Shown here piece by piece: positions 434 through 9,919 of a stretch of 13,840 nt of DNA. The DNA is from a virus. Numbering within the stretch: the first letter of the stretch is position 1; the number at the start of each line of letters is the position of its first letter. The notes beneath the pieces are model-generated. The model saw nothing but the letters and a program-made list of their open reading frames with translations, was not told where the DNA came from and searched no databases. Both the position numbers and the translations under genes were made by a program. Where the stretch lies: UHGV virus genome UHGV-0179107; one strand, 5' to 3'.

Positions 434-670
434 TTATACCTCGCCTTGTCTTAAAGATTTTGATAATGAAATAGCCCTTTTCAGGGCCTCTTTATCAATA
501 TTATATTTCTCTGCCAGCTCTTCGATTGAGAGGCCTTCTGTGTGGGATCCACTTTTAATAATGGTGGACCCCTCTTTCGCTGACTCTGGCAGGTGACATA
601 CTGTCACCCCTTCGGGCGTGTCTTCGGAGTCCTTAACCAGTTTTTGATAAATCTTTTCGTAGGTATTCAT
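434..670 (-). CDS. Small protein (78 aa) with a probable helix-turn-helix near the C-terminus
   Basis: ORF track; ATG 670-668 sits 1 nt after the TGA of the upstream gene (translational coupling). The segment LSIEELAEKYNIDKEALKRAI looks HTH-like by eye. Function not recognised. Confidence 0.55.
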   Translation of the reverse strand: MNTYEKIYQKLVKDSEDTPEGVTVCHLPESAKEGSTIIKSGSHTEGLSIEELAEKYNIDKEALKRAISLSKSLRQGEV

Positions 671-2479: not shown

Positions 2480-3397
2480 TTATTTATCAAGTAAAACCAT
2501 CTTGCCCTCTCTTAAGCGGCAATTTTGCCATGCTGGGAAGGGGTTCAATAAATCTCCGGGATTGGCTTCAGTGTCCACAATAATTTCTATCCCTTCGTTT
2601 TCTTTTAATAGATTTGCTAGACGAAAGGCTTGATCAGTAAGATGCCAATATTTAGCAGAATTCATTATTTTGCCATCAATGGTGCCTTTAATATTTTTCA
2701 TCACCTCATAGCCATAGATTTCATCACGCAATACGCTAAGTTTTACCCTTCCTTTACCTTTATATTTAGCTTTAGCTGCCAGATATGCCGCCTTTGCTTC
2801 AGAATTCGTCAGAACTGGATAACCGTAAAAATCTTTCTCACGTTTGCCAGCGTCTCTACGGCGTTCTCTGCGTTCTTTTTTAGGTTGGGAAGGGGATTGC
2901 ATTGCCTCGGGCTTTTCAGGCTGCTGTGCGGCTTGTTTTGGGGCTTCCTGAGGCTGTTCTACTTTAGCGGCAGTCTTTCCGAAAGTCTCTAAGATGCCTT
3001 CTGGAATATTTACGCCCTTCTCGATGCACATATCCAACAATTGATCAGGGGTTTTCAGCAATTCGTAATGATTAGATTTGCCTTTTTTAACAATTGAAAT
3101 AAGCCCAGCATTTTCAAGAGATTTAATAGCGCTGGCTATTTTCCCGCGATCCTTTCTGAGTTGAGTTGCCAGTTTTTGCTCTGAAATATAAATTCCCTCA
3201 CCGTTAAAATGAAAGCCCACCATTTTTCCATAAATTAACATTTCAAAGTCTGTTAAATAAAAGCGCTCTTTAACTGTTCCCGTCTTTTTATTAGAGATTG
3301 TTGTTGCTACCGGTTTATCAAAATCATACTGAATAAAGAAATCGAAAGAGGGGGTAAAAGGTGCCCCCAGTCTATTTCCTGCCATAATTTCCCCCAT
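2480..3397 (-). CDS. Putative iteron-binding replication initiator / replisome organiser (305 aa): N-terminal winged-helix domain, Q/P/E/K-rich linker, C-terminal domain
   Basis: ORF track. The N-terminal domain (KERFYLTDFEMLIYGKMVGFHF...ISEQKLATQL...AIKSLENAGLISIVKKGKSNHYEL) has the winged-helix layout of lambda-O / phage replisome-organiser type proteins, followed by a basic low-complexity linker (KKERRERRRDAGKREKD). ATG 3397 overlaps the TAA of the upstream paralog; an alternative start at 3385 gives matching MA-N N-termini in both paralogs. Confidence 0.65.
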   Translation of the reverse strand: MGEIMAGNRLGAPFTPSFDFFIQYDFDKPVATTISNKKTGTVKERFYLTDFEMLIYGKMVGFHFNGEGIYISEQKLATQLRKDRGKIASAIKSLENAGLISIVKKGKSNHYELLKTPDQLLDMCIEKGVNIPEGILETFGKTAAKVEQPQEAPKQAAQQPEKPEAMQSPSQPKKERRERRRDAGKREKDFYGYPVLTNSEAKAAYLAAKAKYKGKGRVKLSVLRDEIYGYEVMKNIKGTIDGKIMNSAKYWHLTDQAFRLANLLKENEGIEIIVDTEANPGDLLNPFPAWQNCRLREGKMVLLDK

Positions 3398-3783
3398 TAA
3401 TATATAAAATATTCTCTAATACCCTGCTCATCGCACATCTTGCCAAGCTGATCAGGGGTAATTAGCAATTCGTAGATATTCGATTTGCCCTGTTCTCGTT
3501 TAACGTTTATCAGACCTGCAGCTTCTAATGTTTTGATTGCCGACCTTACTGTTTTCTCTGTAACATCATAATCGTCTGCTAATGTCTGCGTCGAAAGCTC
3601 TGAGATAATTATTTCTTCACCCTCCTTAAAAGAATAACTTACCATTTCACCATAAATTGTTACCTCCAACAAATTTAAGTGAAATCTTTCTTTATTGGTT
3701 GCAGTTTTTGCAATCGGATTTTTAAAAGTGTATTTGATGAAACGTTTAAAAATGGGAGTAAAATTTTCATCGTTGTTTGCCAT
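3397..3783 (-). CDS. Truncated paralog of the adjacent initiator (about 128 aa): winged-helix DNA-binding domain only
   Basis: Clear paralogy with the N-terminus of the 305-aa protein (NFTPIFKRFIKYTF vs PFTPSFDFFIQYDF; GKSNIYELLITPDQLGKMCDEQG vs GKSNHYELLKTPDQLLDMCIEKG). The track start at 3798 is a TTG that overlaps the SD; ATG 3783-3781 with GGAGG 8 nt upstream is the likely start. Confidence 0.65.
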   Translation of the reverse strand: MANNDENFTPIFKRFIKYTFKNPIAKTATNKERFHLNLLEVTIYGEMVSYSFKEGEEIIISELSTQTLADDYDVTEKTVRSAIKTLEAAGLINVKREQGKSNIYELLITPDQLGKMCDEQGIREYFIY

Positions 3784-3807
3784 AATATGATCCTCCAAGA
3801 TTATTTA

Positions 3808-4489: not shown

Positions 4490-4801
4490 GGCCCACAACA
4501 TGCCTTCCTGCAGAAGGTTTGATTTTAATCAAATCCACGAAGTGGACCACAGGAGGGAGAGCACTTTTTGCCTTAGGCGCTCTAAAATCAATTCTAACGC
4601 GATTTAGAGGTCAGGTAATGCAATTGCACTACTCACCACAGTTAATGCAGCCAGAAGGCCATTTAGGGGCCCTATTTTTGATTTATGAGTGTCATATTAC
4701 GTGCATGCACGCGCGGGAGACTCTTTGCTGCCTCCTTCCGGCGCTGGCAAGCTTTCGGCAGCGGTCCACATTGTGGGCCTCATGCTGACGCATTCGCCGG
4801 A

Positions 4802-4963
4802 CCCACACAGACCCGAAGGGCTTAGCCATGGGCTAAGGTGCCGTAGGCACTCCCACACACAATTGGGTGACGTGTCATGTATGGAATACATTGTCACCCC
4901 ACACACAGGCCGACGTAGTCGGTTTAGCTGTATAGCTAAAGTCACAAAGTGACCCACACACAG
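4802..4963 (+). repeat. Array of about 50-bp units, each beginning with CCCACACACAG and containing different short perfect palindromes
   Basis: Punctuation motif at 4802, 4852, 4898 and 4954. Palindromes: CTTAGCC-ATG-GGCTAAG (4821-4837), GTGCC-GTA-GGCAC (4838-4850), GGGTGAC...GTCACCC (4865-4899), CCGAC-GTA-GTCGG (4910-4922), TTAGCT-GTAT-AGCTAA (4924-4939), GTCAC-AAA-GTGAC (4941-4953). Confidence 0.6.
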
Positions 4964-4966
4964 ATT

Positions 4967-5003
4967 GCCTAAAGAGTCGCTCATGCTCTTTAGGCTTTCA
5001 TTT
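4967..5003 (+). terminator. Candidate intrinsic terminator closing the hairpin array
   Basis: Perfect 10-bp stem GCCTAAAGAG / CTCTTTAGGC (4967-4976 and 4986-4995) with a 9-nt loop, followed by TTTCATTT. The minus-strand side has no U-tract. Confidence 0.4.
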
Positions 5004-5124
5004 GTGGGTTAAGCTTTTCCCTTAGAAAACCTTCCCCACTCTCTGATCCCTCCCCATCCCCCCTTGTTGGGGGATTATAGGGGGAGTTCTTTTTATTGAT
5101 CTATTCTCTTTATCTATTAGTGTG

Positions 5125-5270
5125 GGAAATCCCAGCATATATATGTAGGAAATTCCCGCATATATATGTTGGAAATACCAGCATATCCCTTTCTGTGTAT
5201 GGTTGAATATGCGGGAAATTCCAGCATATCGATCCCTATGCATGTGGGAACATGTGGGAAATACCGACAG
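5125..5270. repeat. Iteron array, candidate replication origin: GGAAAT-N-CC-(A/C)-GCATAT repeats
   Basis: Four 16-bp copies at 5125-5140, 5148-5163, 5171-5186 and 5214-5229. The first three are spaced exactly 23 bp (about two helical turns), the fourth is 43 bp further. Degenerate copies follow (tandem CATGTGGGAA x2 at 5241-5260; GGAAATACCGACAG at 5257-5270; GGAAATATGCAGATC at 5403-5417). Confidence 0.55.
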
Positions 5271-6332
5271 GTCTGTGTGGCTTAATTTGACTTGATATTG
5301 ACTAACAAAGGCCTTCGTAGAAGGTTTGAGATGAGCTCAAATCACCATATGTGACTAACAAACCTCTCTCCTCTCTCTTTGCTTTGATTTTCTCTCATGT
5401 GTGGGAAATATGCAGATCAACACCCTTTGATTTTATCGACAGGTATGTTGACACGCCCTACGGTTGTGAGGCCCGGGCATCATAAGTATGGCCCCTGGGG
5501 CAGTCCATCCTTCCCTCACACAGGACAATGAATACACTCCTTGCAGTCATGAATACATAAAGAACATGAAAGACTGTTCACACCAACACGCCGATAAATT
5601 GCCTGAAGAGGCTTACATGGTGGGATTGTTGTGTGGGTAATAGTGATCATGCTAACAGATTATGTTAATCAGATGTAAATTCCGATTTTGTGGTCTGCAG
5701 ATAGCAAACTATACTGGTTAGATGATCAGGGGAATGACTACAAAACAATCAAAAATGTGGGATATAGACATCTATACTTCTAATGTGCTGTGTGGGGTGT
5801 TAGTGCGTCCTAACCTCTAAGTCATTGATTTTAAGTGTTGGGAGAGATGCATTTAACATAATAGATCTTATCTACACTAATAAAGCGCACTACAAAATCT
5901 GATTTAAAAATCATGATAAGGAGGCCCAGAATTTACGTACAGTCACCTGAATAAATAATGTGCACAACATACAGCAAAGCTTAAGAATTAACATAATAGC
6001 AACGTGGTCAGTAGTGGTGTGATATTTGAGAATTGTTAGAAGAAAAAAGGGAGGTGGGGGAGCGCCTGCCTGGCACCTCAGACGAACATCTGACGGGTAT
6101 TAATACCGCTAATGGATATTTCTGACACCCACACCCAAGACCGCTTTCAGCACATAGCCATACACCGCACAGGATGCAATTGTGATAACAAAAAATGGGG
6201 GTGTAATAGGGTAGGCTGTCTTTCATCAAAATCACTTCTACGACGTTACCAGAGTGATAACAAGAAAACAGGCCTCTAAGATTATCTGTGCCTCGTTTTT
6301 AGCTTTTTGTGTGGTTACCAGGTGAAGAGGAA

Positions 6333-6497
6333 ATGTTAAAAACTGTTCATTTTATGCACAAACTAGTCAGGGTGATACCACAAAATGAGGCGCAAGAAAT
6401 CCAGCTGCAGATAATCTTGCAGCCAGATTTTGCAGTTTTTGAGGGTATGTTAAATTTGACAAAAATAGAGAAAAGGCTTATTAAGATAACTTATTGA
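6333..6497 (+). CDS. Possible small ORF (54 aa from ATG 6333), weak
   Basis: ORF track 6309..6497 starts at a GTG; the internal ATG 6333 has GGTGA about 7 nt upstream. It is the only moderately plausible ORF in the 2.7-kb gap, with no recognisable family. Could be non-coding. Confidence 0.2.
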   Translation: MLKTVHFMHKLVRVIPQNEAQEIQLQIILQPDFAVFEGMLNLTKIEKRLIKITY

Positions 6498-6571
6498 TTT
6501 TATTAGTATTATGAAAAAGGGTTACACCCTCTCTCTTACTCTGTCAACCGGGCGGTTGTGGCATAAAACGG

Positions 6572-6697
6572 ATTAAATCAATAAATAGGCATTAAATACC
6601 CATTAAATACCCCTTAAATAGGGGTTAATTGCTCAGGACTGAAAGGAGTGTAAATAGGGGATAAATAGGGGTTAATTGAGGGATAAATAAAAAGGGG
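6572..6697. repeat. AT-rich direct-repeat cluster: TAAATAGGGGTTAATTG x2 plus shorter TAAATAGG and ATTAAAT copies
   Basis: 17-mer at 6615-6631 and 6662-6678 (47 bp apart); TAAATAGGGG at 6651-6660; TAAATAGG at 6582-6589; ATTAAAT at 6572, 6591 and 6603. Lies just beyond the terminator of the membrane-protein operon. Confidence 0.55.
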
Positions 6698-6710
6698 CCG
6701 TGATGGCCCC
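6681..6710 (-). terminator. Rho-independent terminator of the leftward HTH / membrane-protein operon
   Basis: Minus strand: GGGGCC-AUCAC-GGCCCC (plus 6694-6710) followed by UUUUUAUUUAU, starting 8 nt after the TGA at 6721-6719. Confidence 0.7.
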
Positions 6711-6718
6711 CTGGTAGG

Positions 6719-7237
6719 TCAGAACAGTTTTTTGCTTTTTCTCCAACTAACGCCGCGTTTGCCTATGCTCAGCCAGCCGCCAGCGAATCGGGTACCTGCG
6801 GTAACACTAGCTCCCCTGGTGCCTACATGTGCATAAATACCTGCCCCACTGCTACCACCGCTTCTACGGCTTTTTCCGCCATCGATATCGAGGAGAGCAC
6901 AGATTGCACCCCACAAAAAGCCAACCAACCAATATACATATGCTAAGCCTAAAACACCCCAGGTTACCGCCCACCCCTCTAGACTAGTGGGGAAGTAGAA
7001 AGCATTGAGAACAGCATTTATAGGACGGATCAGGAGAGAATCTATAAAACCAATATCCACATGAAACGGGCCATCACCGAACTTGCTACTGCCAATAAAC
7101 AAGGTAGCAGGGTAAAAACAGATAGCCATTAACCAAGGCCCGGCTATCAAAAACGCTGCAGTGTACTGAAAGAACATTTTTACCAGTTCTTTAAAAAGCC
7201 TTTTATTTACTGATTCTTTGTCTTTCTGGAATAACAT
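6719..7237 (-). CDS. Membrane protein (172 aa) with two predicted transmembrane helices and a Gly/Ser/Arg-rich C-terminal tail
   Basis: ORF track. Hydrophobic segments FFQYTAAFLIAGPWLMAICFYPATLFI and WAVTWGVLGLAYVYWLVGFLWGAICALL; tail GKSRRSGGSSGAGIYAHVGTRGAS...SWRKSKK. A purine-rich SD-like stretch precedes ATG 7237. No family recognised. Confidence 0.65.
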   Translation of the reverse strand: MLFQKDKESVNKRLFKELVKMFFQYTAAFLIAGPWLMAICFYPATLFIGSSKFGDGPFHVDIGFIDSLLIRPINAVLNAFYFPTSLEGWAVTWGVLGLAYVYWLVGFLWGAICALLDIDGGKSRRSGGSSGAGIYAHVGTRGASVTAGTRFAGGWLSIGKRGVSWRKSKKLF

Positions 7238-7294
7238 AGCGGTACCCCTTTGCGAGAAGTTGAATTTAGTTAATAACCTGTTGGACCGTTTACA

Positions 7295-7555
7295 TTACTT
7301 AGCTTTCTTGAATCTCCCGTCCTCCTTTCTTTCGATATTGTGGTAGTCGGCATAGGCTTTCAGCCTTCTGTGCACGGTGGCTATCCCCACACCGAAGGTT
7401 TTAGCAATAACCTGTCGTGGTGTTCCCTCCTCGACCATCTTAAACATCTGTGCCGCTACATCCATTTGTGCGGCTATCTCCATTTGCTTTGCCTTTGCTT
7501 TAACTTCAGCTATCAGCTCTTCCCTCAGTCTCCTGATATCTTTAGCCCCCGTCAT
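7295..7555 (-). CDS. Small DNA-binding protein (86 aa): N-terminal coiled coil, C-terminal resolvase/Hin-type HTH
   Basis: ORF track. The segment TPRQVIAKTFGVGIATVHRRLKAY fits the resolvase-type HTH pattern (IA...GV...TV.R.L). GAGGAG precedes ATG 7555-7553. Confidence 0.6.
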   Translation of the reverse strand: MTGAKDIRRLREELIAEVKAKAKQMEIAAQMDVAAQMFKMVEEGTPRQVIAKTFGVGIATVHRRLKAYADYHNIERKEDGRFKKAK

Positions 7556-7597
7556 AAACTCCTCTCAATGCTGTTCATAAACTCATCTCAATGATGA
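7552..7597. repeat. Tandem 23-bp duplication spanning the RBS and start codon of the HTH gene
   Basis: Plus strand TCATAAACTCCTCTCAATGCTGT (7552-7574) and TCATAAACTCATCTCAATGATGA (7575-7597). On the minus strand the upstream copy creates an 8-codon uORF (MNSIERSL) whose TGA overlaps the HTH start codon. Confidence 0.6.
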
Positions 7598-7656
7598 TTA
7601 ATACAAAATCTAAGACTACCAGACCTATTAAAAATGCTTTGCCTCCTTTGCCCATC

Positions 7657-7779
7657 TCATACCTCCACACACAGAGCTAACATCAGGGCTAACACTCCAA
7701 CCACCTCAATTGCCTTAACCATGTGTGGGTGATGAAACCTAGCCTTTTGCCATGCGCTGGCACTGTTCTTGATACCCAT
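7657..7779 (-). CDS. Possible small hydrophobic peptide (40 aa), below the ORF-track cutoff
   Basis: Hand translation: MGIKNSASAWQKARFHHPHMVKAIEVVGVLALMLALCVEV. Its 5-prime leader shares a 15-mer (plus-strand TTTGCGAGAAGTTGA at 7791-7805 and 7249-7263), within a roughly 26-nt homologous region, with the leader of the membrane-protein gene. Confidence 0.3.
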   Translation of the reverse strand: MGIKNSASAWQKARFHHPHMVKAIEVVGVLALMLALCVEV

Positions 7780-8016
7780 ATCTATAACCTTTTGCGAGAA
7801 GTTGATTTGTTTGCTCGGTTGGGTGCTATCAATGCTCCCCTTCCTTGATTCGAACTATAGCCGGGTAAATCCCCGGAAAACATTGATATTGATCAAAAGA
7901 TATCTATCACGAATGAAAAAGTTATGATAGATGCTATGAGATGACGTATTGATGGGATTGATAGAGGTCTGAAAATACCGTTACCACGCTAATTATTAGA
8001 ATTTATATAATCAGGG

Positions 8017-8047
8017 TGTTGACAATTTGAGAGAATACTGATATAAT
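8017..8047 (+). promoter_or_regulatory. Consensus sigma70 promoter upstream of the capsid genes
   Basis: TTGACA (8019-8024), 17-nt spacer, TATAAT (8042-8047), with an AT-rich UP-like tract upstream (7985-8015). The 14-mer TGTTGACAATTTGA (8017-8030) is identical to the reverse complement of 4157-4170. Confidence 0.6.
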
Positions 8048-8190
8048 ATACATATACACCGTAAATCTTTGGTGAAAGTGATTTGCCGTATTTTCCTCCA
8101 AAGTAAAGGCGACCAGGTAGCGGTGCCGCCTTATAAATAACACTACCCTGATCATCGTTGAGTGGTCGATTAATTCTCCTATTGGGCTAG

Positions 8191-8199
8191 TTATCCACA
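8191..8199 (+). promoter_or_regulatory. Perfect DnaA-box consensus TTATCCACA in the capsid leader
   Basis: Exact 9-mer seen directly. It overlaps the left arm of an 8-bp inverted repeat CCACACAG / CTGTGTGG (8195-8202 and 8221-8228). Only one copy, so a chance match is possible. Confidence 0.3.
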
Positions 8200-8366
8200 C
8201 AGTTTTCTTTTGCGGGTTTTCTGTGTGGGTAGCTATCCCGAAAGGTATTTCCCCGCTGATGTGACCGCAGCCTGAACTGATTCGGGGGAGTGCCTTTCGT
8301 GATAGTGCTCTCAAGCAACCGTAACCATGTGCTATCAGCCAACTTTGTTGGTTTTCCTCATGTGGA

Positions 8367-8396
8367 ATAGCCCCCGCTTGGACGGTGCGGGGCTAT
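8367..8396 (+). terminator. Terminator-like or attenuator hairpin in the capsid leader
   Basis: ATAGCCCC(C)GC / GCGGGGCTAT stem with one bulged C and a 9-nt loop, followed by a pyrimidine-rich but imperfect U-tract (CTCCCTCTTCTTAT). Lies between the promoter and the first capsid-module gene. Confidence 0.3.
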
Positions 8397-8525
8397 CTCC
8401 CTCTTCTTATATCAATCTCCCTTTTAATAGATTTCCGGCATAACTTTTCGGCCCGAGCCTGTCGTAGTTCTAGAGGTTATGCCGGAACTCTTTGAGGGGA
8501 GTTAATTTAAATCGCAGGTGATCAA

Positions 8526-8872: not shown

Positions 8873-9919
8873 ATGGCTAAAAAAGAATTCGAAGTTCGCG
8901 ATCTGTGTGGTCTGATTAAAGACATCCCGCTGGATAACCAGATTATTTCAGCAATGGATATCTTTAACACTACTGCTCTGTGCAATACCTTTAAATTTGA
9001 ATATGACAAAGTCCGCCAGGTGAAACAAACCGCTTTCGGTCAGTATCCGCGCTACGGTGAACAGATGGCGACCATTACCGCAGATGAGCGTGAAACGGGC
9101 ACGGGTGATATGGCATTCACTGCCGCATCCAGTGCTATTTATCCTTCTGACTGGCAGGGTATTCGTGTTCCGGGCAAAGATTCCGAAGAGAATTTAGAGT
9201 CTGTTACCGCTCGGCGTGTTATTCAGTTGGGTGAAGGCTTACGCCAGACCCATGAAGAAGCACGCCAGCTTGCTCTCTTTGAGAACAAAATTATCCTCAC
9301 CAAGGGTAAAGAACTGAATGTGTGCGAACTGCTGGGCGCACAGCAAACCACCTCGGAAGTGGATTTAGCTAAAGATATCCTTAAACAGCTGCAGGACCTG
9401 GTTGCACTGAGCAAGATTAAACAGCGTGGTGTCGTTCGCGCTCTTCGTGGTTTCACCCTGTTCTGCCGTGCTGAGCTCTTTGCTGCAATTCAGACTGATG
9501 AACTGTTGAGAAAAGTGCTGTTGTTCGGCAATCAGAATATTACCGACAAAGGTCTGATGTTCCCTGAGGATATTCTGCCGGGCTTCCCGACCTTCCGCAT
9601 TCCGGGCTTAGCCCTGCGTGTGGTGCAAATGGATAGTCTGCCAGAGAATACTGCTTATCTGGTCCCACAATTCCAGCCACATGCGTTAGGCGATATGGTG
9701 GGCGTTTATACTCAATTTTTCGGCCCTTGCGCTCGCAACTTGAAGCTTGCAAACGGCGCTGCACGTGAAGCTTTCATGTATATGGAAGAGTCCAGAGGTA
9801 AACGAGAAATCTTCATTGAATCCTCTTATGCTTTCATGAACATGATGCCTGAGGTTGTGGTTAAAGTGAGTGTTAGTAACTCCGCCGCCGCTGCTCTGGC
9901 AAAAGCCAAGGCTAAATAA
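8873..9919 (+). CDS. Major capsid protein, lambda gpE-like family (348 aa from ATG 8873)
   Basis: Track start 8867 is a TTG; ATG 8873 has a perfect AGGAGG 6 nt upstream. Size and the C-terminal LPENTAYLVP segment parallel lambda gpE (341 aa; LPDNTMVLG), recalled from memory. Confidence 0.8.
   Translation: MAKKEFEVRDLCGLIKDIPLDNQIISAMDIFNTTALCNTFKFEYDKVRQVKQTAFGQYPRYGEQMATITADERETGTGDMAFTAASSAIYPSDWQGIRVPGKDSEENLESVTARRVIQLGEGLRQTHEEARQLALFENKIILTKGKELNVCELLGAQQTTSEVDLAKDILKQLQDLVALSKIKQRGVVRALRGFTLFCRAELFAAIQTDELLRKVLLFGNQNITDKGLMFPEDILPGFPTFRIPGLALRVVQMDSLPENTAYLVPQFQPHALGDMVGVYTQFFGPCARNLKLANGAAREAFMYMEESRGKREIFIESSYAFMNMMPEVVVKVSVSNSAAAALAKAKAK

Follow-up and report, generated by a model that had tools for sequence, protein, structure and literature searches.

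A strand-polar C/A repeat flanks the putative replication origin of a satellite-like Escherichia coli plasmid and joins variable hairpin cassettes with counterparts in rV5-type phages

The virus genome UHGV-0179107 was analyzed over its whole 13,840-nt stretch (the window; position 1 is the first letter), which is a complete circular element of ~13.8 kb whose tape-measure gene spans the window ends. The left operon comprises the tape measure, a pair of winged-helix genes resembling replication initiators, and several small genes; the right operon encodes, among others, a Dit-like distal tail protein and the major capsid protein. The two operons have consensus promoters that are similar to each other, and transcription is apparently divergent. 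Between these promoters lie ~2.6 kb of gene-free DNA, a variable cargo gene, a gene for an 86-aa HTH_7 protein, and a 40-aa open reading frame (ORF). The subject of this study is a short C/A-rich motif, (A)CCCACACA(CA)(G), that recurs in this region in both orientations.

Of 5,426 complete E. coli genomes, 7 carried a circular plasmid of 13.2 to 13.7 kb with ~92% identity to the window. The element was extrachromosomal in all carriers and chromosomal in none of the 5,426 genomes. The family was also present on hundreds of ~13.5-kb contigs from sequencing runs, roughly 440 of its contigs being in Logan, and the sources were E. coli isolates and metagenomes only. One record (NZ_CP043822.1; 39,610 bp) holds a head-to-tail trimer of the element, with three matching places, which is either an assembly artefact or a genuine multimer or concatemer. 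Homology connected the element to the coliphage rV5, with 50% identity between the Dit-like protein and an rV5 structural protein, 45% between a 152-aa protein and the rV5 neck protein, and 25% between the two tape measures; the capsid protein had remote relatives only. A partial gene scan of the element recognized no terminase, portal, or integrase, megablast returned no close relatives among phages, and a protein scan returned none in IMG/VR. The element looks like a plasmid-borne satellite of Vequintavirus (rV5-type) phages, so far undescribed; its satellite status rests on homology to rV5 structural genes and non-coding modules, and its helper dependence is putative. We found no literature description of these plasmids, of any rV5 satellite, or of the motif.

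A sequence-only reading of the window had proposed that the motif occurs in both orientations, well above chance, and is concentrated in non-coding and leader DNA. Its positions were all correct to 1 to 2 nt, and the sites it listed hold, with one exact copy at 538 on the minus strand having been missed. Measured against 200 dinucleotide-preserving shuffles of the window, CCCACACAG and its complement occurred exactly four times (0.07 expected), at 4802, 5788(-), 8221(-), and 538(-), and 20 times with up to one mismatch (2.1 expected; the maximum of any shuffle was 6). One-mismatch copies were located, from the hairpin array to the structural leader, at 4852, 4898/4900, 4953/4955, 5273(-), 5397(-), 5515, 5629(-), 7386, 7666, 7721(-), and 8194, with additional ones at 8903(-), 10423(-), and 12167(-). 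In an unbiased k-mer scan, TGTGTGGG was the top-ranked over-represented 8-mer of the window (11 versus 0.31 expected). The density of this 8-mer was 2.6 per kb between 4800 and 8230 versus 0.19 in the remaining element, compared with 0.11 in phage rV5, and a 50-kb stretch sampled from the E. coli K-12 chromosome had no copy. A motif as frequent in the host as in the element had been set beforehand as the outcome that would speak against a site; the K-12 sample did not show it, and because 8-mer density is high in the element and zero in the K-12 sample, the motif does not appear to be a host-wide compositional feature.

The proposed concentration in non-coding and leader DNA needs a correction, in that the copies at 7666 and 7721 fall inside the conserved 40-aa ORF. 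Some copies are array joints, and others flank the putative origin, belong to plasmid-specific iterons, supply codons of the small ORF, or make up a hairpin stem in a leader RNA (Table 1). Enrichment, conservation down to 46% protein identity, and presence in rV5-like phages support a cis-acting signal rather than compositional bias. To that extent the earlier idea of a signal stands, but the copies do not form one uniform set of sites for one protein.

Table 1. Features of the window that carry or surround the motif
Feature	Position	Strand	Support
Exact motif copy outside the range first reported, beside the 573-619 island	538-546	-	sequence
Lead-in TGCAGCCAGAAGGCCATTTAGGGGCC and core module I (GCGCGGGAGACTCT, covarying stem, GGCGCTGGCAAGCTTTCG, stem partner, GGTCCACATT)	4646-4801	+	rV5 match, covariation
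Joint repeat 1, CCCACACAG	4802-4810	+	alignment
Hairpin cassette A, three small hairpins, loops GAA/ATG/GTA	4811-4851	+	present or absent among relatives; stems covary
Joint repeat 2, CCCACACACA	4852-4861	+	alignment
Hairpin cassette B	4862-4896	+	variant in L006 still pairs via plus-strand G.T
Joint repeat 3, CCCCACACACA	4897-4907	+	alignment
Hairpin cassette C, three hairpins, loops GTA/GTAT/AAA	4908-4952	+	alignment, covariation
Joint repeat 4, CCCACACACA	4953-4962	+	alignment
Terminator-like hairpin GCCTAAAGAG...CTCTTTAGGC, then TTTCATTT	4967-4995	+	array end in every relative
C-run/G-run palindrome, then AT-rich stretch (putative unwinding element)	5035-5120		same order in rV5
Five 23-nt iterons TGTGGGAAATnCCAGCATAT, containing TGTGGG in this plasmid type only	5121-5275	+	unrelated iterons at same place in relatives
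Right-hand copy, CTGTGTGGC on plus strand	5272-5281	-	alignment
Invariant right-hand copy CATGTGTGGGAAATA after CT-rich tract; 8/9 DnaA-box match	5396-5410	-	homologous site kept in L025
Variant CCCTCACACAG	5513-5523	+	alignment
Non-coding block with right-hand copies and short islands identical to rV5 gene-free region	5540-6600		95-98% identity among relatives
Invariant right-hand copy, TTGTGTGGG on plus strand	5629-5637	-	alignment
Invariant right-hand copy CTGTGTGGGG; on minus strand after hairpin GTTAG..CTAAC with variable loop	5788-5797	-	alignment
Invariant copy TTGTGTGGT	6306-6314	-	alignment
Conserved 40-aa ORF MGIKNSASAWQKARFHHPHMVKAIEVVGVLALMLALCVEV; motif pair 7664-7674 and 7719-7729 forms CVE and HPH codons	7657-7779	-	protein-level conservation in L011/L027
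Consensus sigma-70 promoter of structural operon (TTGACA-17-TATAAT)	8019-8047	+	conserved in L011/L027
Leader RNA hairpin, stem formed by motif pair 8194-8202 and 8221-8229; perfect DnaA box 8191-8199	8178-8245	+	invariant in close relatives

Alignment of 14 plasmids, closely related to one another, resolved the array at 4646-4995 into a conserved lead-in, a core module of which at least two alternatives exist (core II occupies the position of core I in some relatives), one to four cassettes of 35 to 90 nt each between identical joints, and a terminator-like hairpin. The junctions had the form C2-4ACACA(CA) throughout the aligned plasmids. Cassette sets differed in otherwise near-identical plasmids; for example, the window has A-B-C, L001 has A, L003 has B-C, and L007 has D. 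The breakpoints fell exactly at joints in plasmids otherwise 92% identical, and the joints varied in how many CA units they had and in how long their C-run was. In the two tested helices of the A/C type, which were compared in seven versions (one from rV5), 84 of 84 cells were Watson-Crick paired with no G.U, and 7 of the 12 pairs had changed on both sides. The core-module stem, compared among the window, rV5, and the relatives L027 and L025, had compensatory changes in four of its six pairs. Loops were mostly GNA triloops on the plus strand, the strand to which the closing hairpin, T-tract included, and the few G.T pairs likewise belong. Because the stems covary and the triloops, G.T pairs, and closing hairpin are found on this strand, hairpin formation by the plus strand, as DNA or RNA, is under selection. 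The joints, consisting of C and A only, are unable to pair with one another. A simple scan, which undercounts stems ending in the C-run, found a hairpin directly upstream of a motif copy only in the array and at 5788, and no Rfam family rose above noise in the window, the rV5 origin-like locus, or the rV5 gene-free region.

Within the closing hairpin, the sequence GCCTAAAGAG (4967-4976), which recurs as GCCTGAAGAG (5601-5609), is itself conserved in all relatives including L025, beyond its stem. It is repeated at least six times in the rV5 gene-free region and resembles the CCTAAAG repeats beside the T7 terminal repeats. Plasmid L002 (NZ_CP020521.1) has ~500 extra nt after the array, aligned past window ~4962, with an rV5-type module GGAGGCCCG...GGGCCGACAC and three copies of a ~40-nt repeat, AAGTATATCAnnTTGATATnTTGATA; the insert looks like a second origin-like block.

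The array is not confined to the plasmids. Positions 4704-4772 matched 121 rV5-like phages at ~84%, in an unannotated intergenic region. In the rV5 locus, CCACACA is followed by the core module, CCCACACA, a hairpin, and a further structured module that is also present in plasmids L002 and L027, and then by an AT-rich stretch, three to six iterons (GTGTCCGTAnnACGGACAG), and a small winged-helix gene; the order of array, AT-rich stretch, and iterons is common to plasmid and phage, as is one 68-nt module. The winged-helix gene is labelled as a replication initiation protein in several GenBank records, and its product is weakly similar to the winged-helix Rep-like proteins of the plasmid. The two densest 3-kb windows of rV5 for the 7-mer CCACACA were this origin-like locus and a 2.5-kb gene-free region. 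The latter has an A-type cassette flanked by CCTACAGG, repeated CCTGAAGAG (also found at window 5601 and, as CCTAAAGAG, in the closing hairpin of the array), and islands of 12 to 47 nt identical or near-identical to the plasmid. The rV5 gene-free region with iterons beside the winged-helix gene is a good candidate for the replication origin of the phage. The rV5 genome paper noted a non-coding box only and did not locate the origin.

Two rV5 gene-free regions, at L019 4001-6559 (rV5 104001-106559) and L016 2347-3006 (rV5 64320-64979), are both rich in CCACACA, CCTGAAGAG, and hairpin cassettes, and the larger one carries TGTTTACA repeats. A hammerhead reading of CCTGAAGAG (CUGANGA) was rejected as lacking Rfam support. 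Islands shared with the rV5 gene-free region include 47 nt at 573-619 (87%) and, on the opposite strand, 24 nt at 6016-6038 (96%). The first lies in a 78-aa ORF (434-670, minus strand), and since a stop codon interrupts that frame in rV5, its conservation is at the nucleotide level. Phage rV5 also encodes a T7-like DNA polymerase and helicase-primase.

Next to the array, the AT-rich stretch (5090-5120, conserved as TTATCTATTAG) precedes the iterons, of which each relative has a different set at this position. The copies at 5121-5263 are part of the plasmid-specific iterons; because iterons differ completely between relatives, these TGTGGGAAAT copies are specific to the plasmid type and stand outside the conserved motif set, and the motif core occurs in them by coincidence. 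The two winged-helix HTH_36/replication-initiator-like genes (2480-3798) vary among relatives, as do the iterons. On the far side of the iterons, the copies at 5272, 5396, 5629, 5788, and 6306 all read TGTGTGG on the plus strand and were all invariant, and the surrounding block (5540-6600) was conserved more strongly than genes. Four ORFs at 5.5-6.6 kb were rejected as genes, three having stop codons in relatives and the fourth being frameshifted in 3 of 13. The block also has a 3-nt hypervariable spot at 6135-6137 (CCA, ATA, CTG, CTT, or CTA) right after the invariant CACCCACAC, in surroundings that are 98% conserved.

Orientation of the 7-mer was counted over 700 nt to the left and 1,300 nt to the right of the AT-rich/iteron core. 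Summed over the 14 plasmids, the left side had 39 CCACACA versus 8 TGTGTGG, and the right side 4 versus 49. The same tendency was seen in L025, which has 46% identity in a shared protein (1 versus 0 on the left, 0 versus 4 on the right), and in rV5 (2 versus 0 and 1 versus 3). Since motif orientation is mirrored about the core, the C/A strand runs 5' to 3' in the direction of the iterons on either side of them.

Two more distant motif pairs, at 7.66/7.72 kb and 8.19/8.22 kb, are regarded as separate local features, one within the conserved 40-aa ORF and one in the ~470-nt leader of the structural operon. The U.G pairs of the leader hairpin fit the plus strand. In L011 and L027, both arms of this hairpin have changed together to GCCGC/GCGG, showing that the leader copies matter as a stem; the array of L027 meanwhile retains five CCCCACACA joints. 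A 21-nt leader pattern had no match in GTDB species genomes or IMG/VR.

We propose that (A)CCCACACA(CA)(G) acts in cis, as a polar element, in the replication-origin region of a small plasmid behaving as a satellite of rV5-type phages, and that a host or helper replication factor reads it as a single strand; we assign this reading a probability of roughly 35%. To the left of the core, the motif would serve as unpaired, C/A-only joints between independently folding hairpin modules, in an array homologous to that beside the rV5 iterons; to the right, it would act in opposite orientation within ultra-conserved non-coding DNA. The single strand could be presented by unwound origin DNA or by transcripts converging on the origin, and the putative reader may take part in priming, helicase loading, or origin activation. 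We infer the single-stranded form because the motif lies between hairpins selected for folding, lacks a dyad or fixed spacing, and is strand-polar about the origin. Repeated joints would, in addition, permit the gain, loss, and swapping of cassettes.

Several observations weigh against this proposal. Origin status itself is deduced from the iterons, AT-rich stretch, and Rep-like genes. L025 has one joint copy only and its hairpins abut without the motif, so the motif is not obligatory between hairpins. The plasmid showed no convincing promoter from which the array could be transcribed. The orientation counts of the 14 plasmids are not independent, independent support coming only from L025, L027, and rV5, and across the rV5 genome the orientation of the 7-mer also follows gene direction, so part of the polarity could be strand composition. 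Lastly, motif-containing tandem repeats in L025 stand directly upstream of genes, where they are more operator-like.

That last arrangement (TGTGTGGAACTGTGAACGT twice in tandem a short way upstream of a gene, and TGTGTGGATTGTGTGGGG within the leader) is what a double-stranded operator would predict, in which a helix-turn-helix (HTH) protein of the element controls the divergent operons. Its candidates are a 162-aa protein with two HTH motifs (1686-2174), which is kept in all relatives, and the 86-aa HTH_7 protein (7295-7555), and copies do occur in the leader/regulatory region at 7.6-8.3 kb. Yet rV5 has motif clusters and a homologue of neither protein, the sites have only an 8-mer in common with no dyad or fixed spacing, and TGATAGA-like repeats between the HTH gene and P_R would suit an operator better. 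Array copies, moreover, stand between hairpins conserved in structure rather than sequence, and a covarying stem has taken the place of the leader pair in L027. We consider an operator unlikely, and do not think of the motif as a classical one. Pairing between RNAs, as in P4 CI-type immunity, would have the CCCACACAG linkers of an array RNA pair with CUGUGUGGG in the structural leader and with other transcripts, controlling termination or translation. A terminator-like hairpin does end the array on the plus strand, CUGUGUGGG is in a hairpin followed by a terminator-like structure, and 10 nt are complementary between 4802-4811 and 8220-8229. The partners do not covary, however: L027 keeps its five joints while its leader arms have become GCCGC/GCGG, so a conserved pairing between array and leader was rejected. 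With cassettes free of G.U pairs and no Rfam family match, we give RNA pairing a slim chance. The chance is similarly slim that the array copies have no reader and are mere microhomology for cassette recombination or slippage, the other copies being accidental or inherited filler. This reading would account for the joint-exact breakpoints and variable CA and C-run lengths, but not for copies outside the array that are invariant and keep their orientation as far as L025 and rV5, nor for 20 copies where 2.1 are expected.

DnaA boxes flank the iterons in P1, F, and R6K, and the CCACA of the motif is the 3' half of TTATCCACA; the copies could then be weak DnaA boxes clustered at a plasmid origin. 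Among motif copies, TTWTNCACA was perfect only at 8191-8199 and matched at 8 of 9 positions at 5400-5408 and 5632-5640, where the homologous site of L025 is also 8/9 with a different mismatch. The array joints match at only 5 to 7 of 9 and have no T at position 4, and the perfect box is lost in L027. Boxes with up to one mismatch numbered 42 in the window against 30.5 expected, a count reached by 3 of 200 shuffles; DnaA boxes were rejected as a general explanation for want of clear overall enrichment, and we consider this reading very unlikely. A packaging (pac) signal deserves slightly more weight while still being improbable. Here the copies would be contact sites for the small terminase of the helper, copied from rV5 by a satellite that must be recognized by the helper terminase; headful packaging that starts at a pac site has been reported for rV5-like phages (PMC13211470). 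Motif clusters and several 12- to 47-nt islands common to rV5 non-coding regions, together with a 5.5-6.6 kb block conserved above genes, are in keeping with this. Against it, the array directly adjoins the iterons and AT-rich stretch in both genomes, and the covariation of the hairpins would be left unexplained.

With regard to known systems, the origin-associated reading has its closest parallels in iteron origins (P1 oriR, F oriS, R6K gamma, and RK2 oriV), which likewise combine ~20-bp tandem iterons beside an AT-rich stretch with Rep-like winged-helix genes, differ in iteron sequence between related plasmids, and have short accessory sites flanking the core in opposite orientation. Two features of theta-type iteron origins, tandem direct repeats of ~17 to 23 bp (here five 23-nt copies) and an adjacent AT-rich region, were found at this putative origin. 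Hairpin-forming single-strand initiation signals (ssiA/ssiB) also stand beside the iterons of RSF1010 oriV, on opposite strands. The accessory site of the element differs in having no recognizable DnaA box or known single-strand initiation (ssi) signal, in joining variable, shuffled hairpin cassettes, and in that its modules also occur in a lytic 138-kb myovirus. In G4-type ssi signals (the complementary-strand origin of phage G4; R100, R6K, and ColIb-P9), three short stable hairpins lie beside a short recognition sequence, and DnaG primes next to them at a 5'-CTG-3', its start triplet, in an SSB-dependent manner. Cassettes A and C each have three adjacent hairpins on one strand, with covariation in the two tested helices, and 5'-CTG-3' is present in the complement of the motif. 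CTG is on the minus strand only (CTGTGTGGG), and the C/A strand has the GNA loops and CAG; GNA triloops closed by C-G are an extra-stable type of DNA mini-hairpin. Unlike G4-type signals, to which they have no sequence similarity, the units of the element are repeated, variable, and shuffled.

Modular exchange at short repeats is a feature of the promoter-early stem-loop (PeSL) cassettes of T4-type phages, reportedly described by Arbiol et al. in 2010, in which short repeated motifs lie at module boundaries and modules are shuffled between related genomes. PeSLs flank genes and contain a promoter, whereas the sets here are 35- to 90-nt non-coding hairpins beside a putative origin. The P4 CI RNA (seqA/seqB/seqC) and the C4 antisense RNA of P1/P7 are similar in belonging to small E. 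coli phage-plasmids or satellites with short complementary leader copies and promoter-proximal terminators. Antisense immunity of this type was rejected, as L027 keeps the joints and loses the leader copy and there is no Rfam C4 match; the copies of the element also centre on the putative origin. As a whole, the element resembles capsid-forming phage satellites (cfPICIs) and the plasmid state of P4, being 13-15 kb in size with its own major capsid protein, few morphogenesis genes (none recognized as terminase or portal in the partial scan), and genes homologous to those of one specific phage group. It differs from them in occurring as a circular plasmid only, with no integrase found, and in having a virulent 138-kb myovirus as its putative helper.

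Accessory sites flanking an iteron origin have precedents, and so do single-strand initiation hairpins. We found no description of an array of variable hairpin cassettes that has a fixed C/A joint, is mirrored across iterons, and occurs in both a virulent myovirus and a small plasmid. A wider and more tentative suggestion is that the CCCACACA-jointed array and its mirror copies represent a new class of modular origin element common to the two. By copying the origin and non-coding signals of its helper, the satellite might cause the T7-like replisome of that phage, and perhaps the packaging machinery as well, to fire on satellite DNA after infection, with shuffled cassettes setting specificity or acting as decoys. 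If true, this would be an undescribed origin architecture, iterons flanked by polar C/A repeats and shuffled hairpin modules, common to therapeutic-candidate coliphages (Vequintavirus) and a plasmid with phage-like distal tail, neck, and tape-measure genes. It would offer a handle on how rV5-type phages start replication, on how a plasmid satellite senses and exploits a virulent helper, and on a natural example of non-coding DNA evolving by cassettes. The survey of complete genomes and sequencing runs in any case flags an unrecognized family of satellite-like plasmids.

The earlier suggestion that a Mor/C-like activator encoded at 1686-2174 reads the motif was not borne out. Only one of seven homologues of this 162-aa protein matched Pfam Mor (PF08765), below threshold (E = 0.018), and the window protein had no hit; its best weak profile matches were to KorA and sigma-70 region 4. 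A structural model (pLDDT 79) had no Protein Data Bank match with E <= 0.001 in Foldseek. Identity as a Mor/C transcription activator is not supported on these grounds, and neither this protein nor the 86-aa HTH_7 protein has a homologue in rV5. Other motif classes were set aside. Chi (GCTGGTGG) has no copy on either strand of the window. A CRISPR array, whose repeats measure at least ~21 nt and whose spacers are unique, does not fit repeats of 8 to 11 nt with self-complementary hairpins as spacers, no cas genes, and no Rfam CRISPR repeat above noise. A type III toxin-antitoxin RNA array (ToxI-like) was rejected because the units differ in sequence and length and the hairpin at 4967-4995 is followed by iterons rather than an ORF.

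The left-operon promoter (4168-4140, minus strand) is followed shortly by a terminator-like hairpin (4088-4066, minus strand), and the structural promoter by another at 8367-8410 (plus strand), where L011 and L027 have a strong T-run terminator. Because such hairpins follow both promoters, both operons may need antitermination, possibly triggered by the helper. The cargo slot (6719-7237, minus strand) holds at least three unrelated genes among relatives, whose products are a membrane protein of 172 aa, a signal-peptide-bearing protein of 195 aa, and a protein of ~236 aa, and in L025 it holds 270-aa and 162-aa genes, a pattern typical of an accessory or defence hotspot. Just past the cargo-gene terminator, at 6582-6689, are repeats with an 11-bp period (TAAATAGGGG/TAAATACCC) that differ in number among relatives and are possibly centromere-like or a second iteron set.

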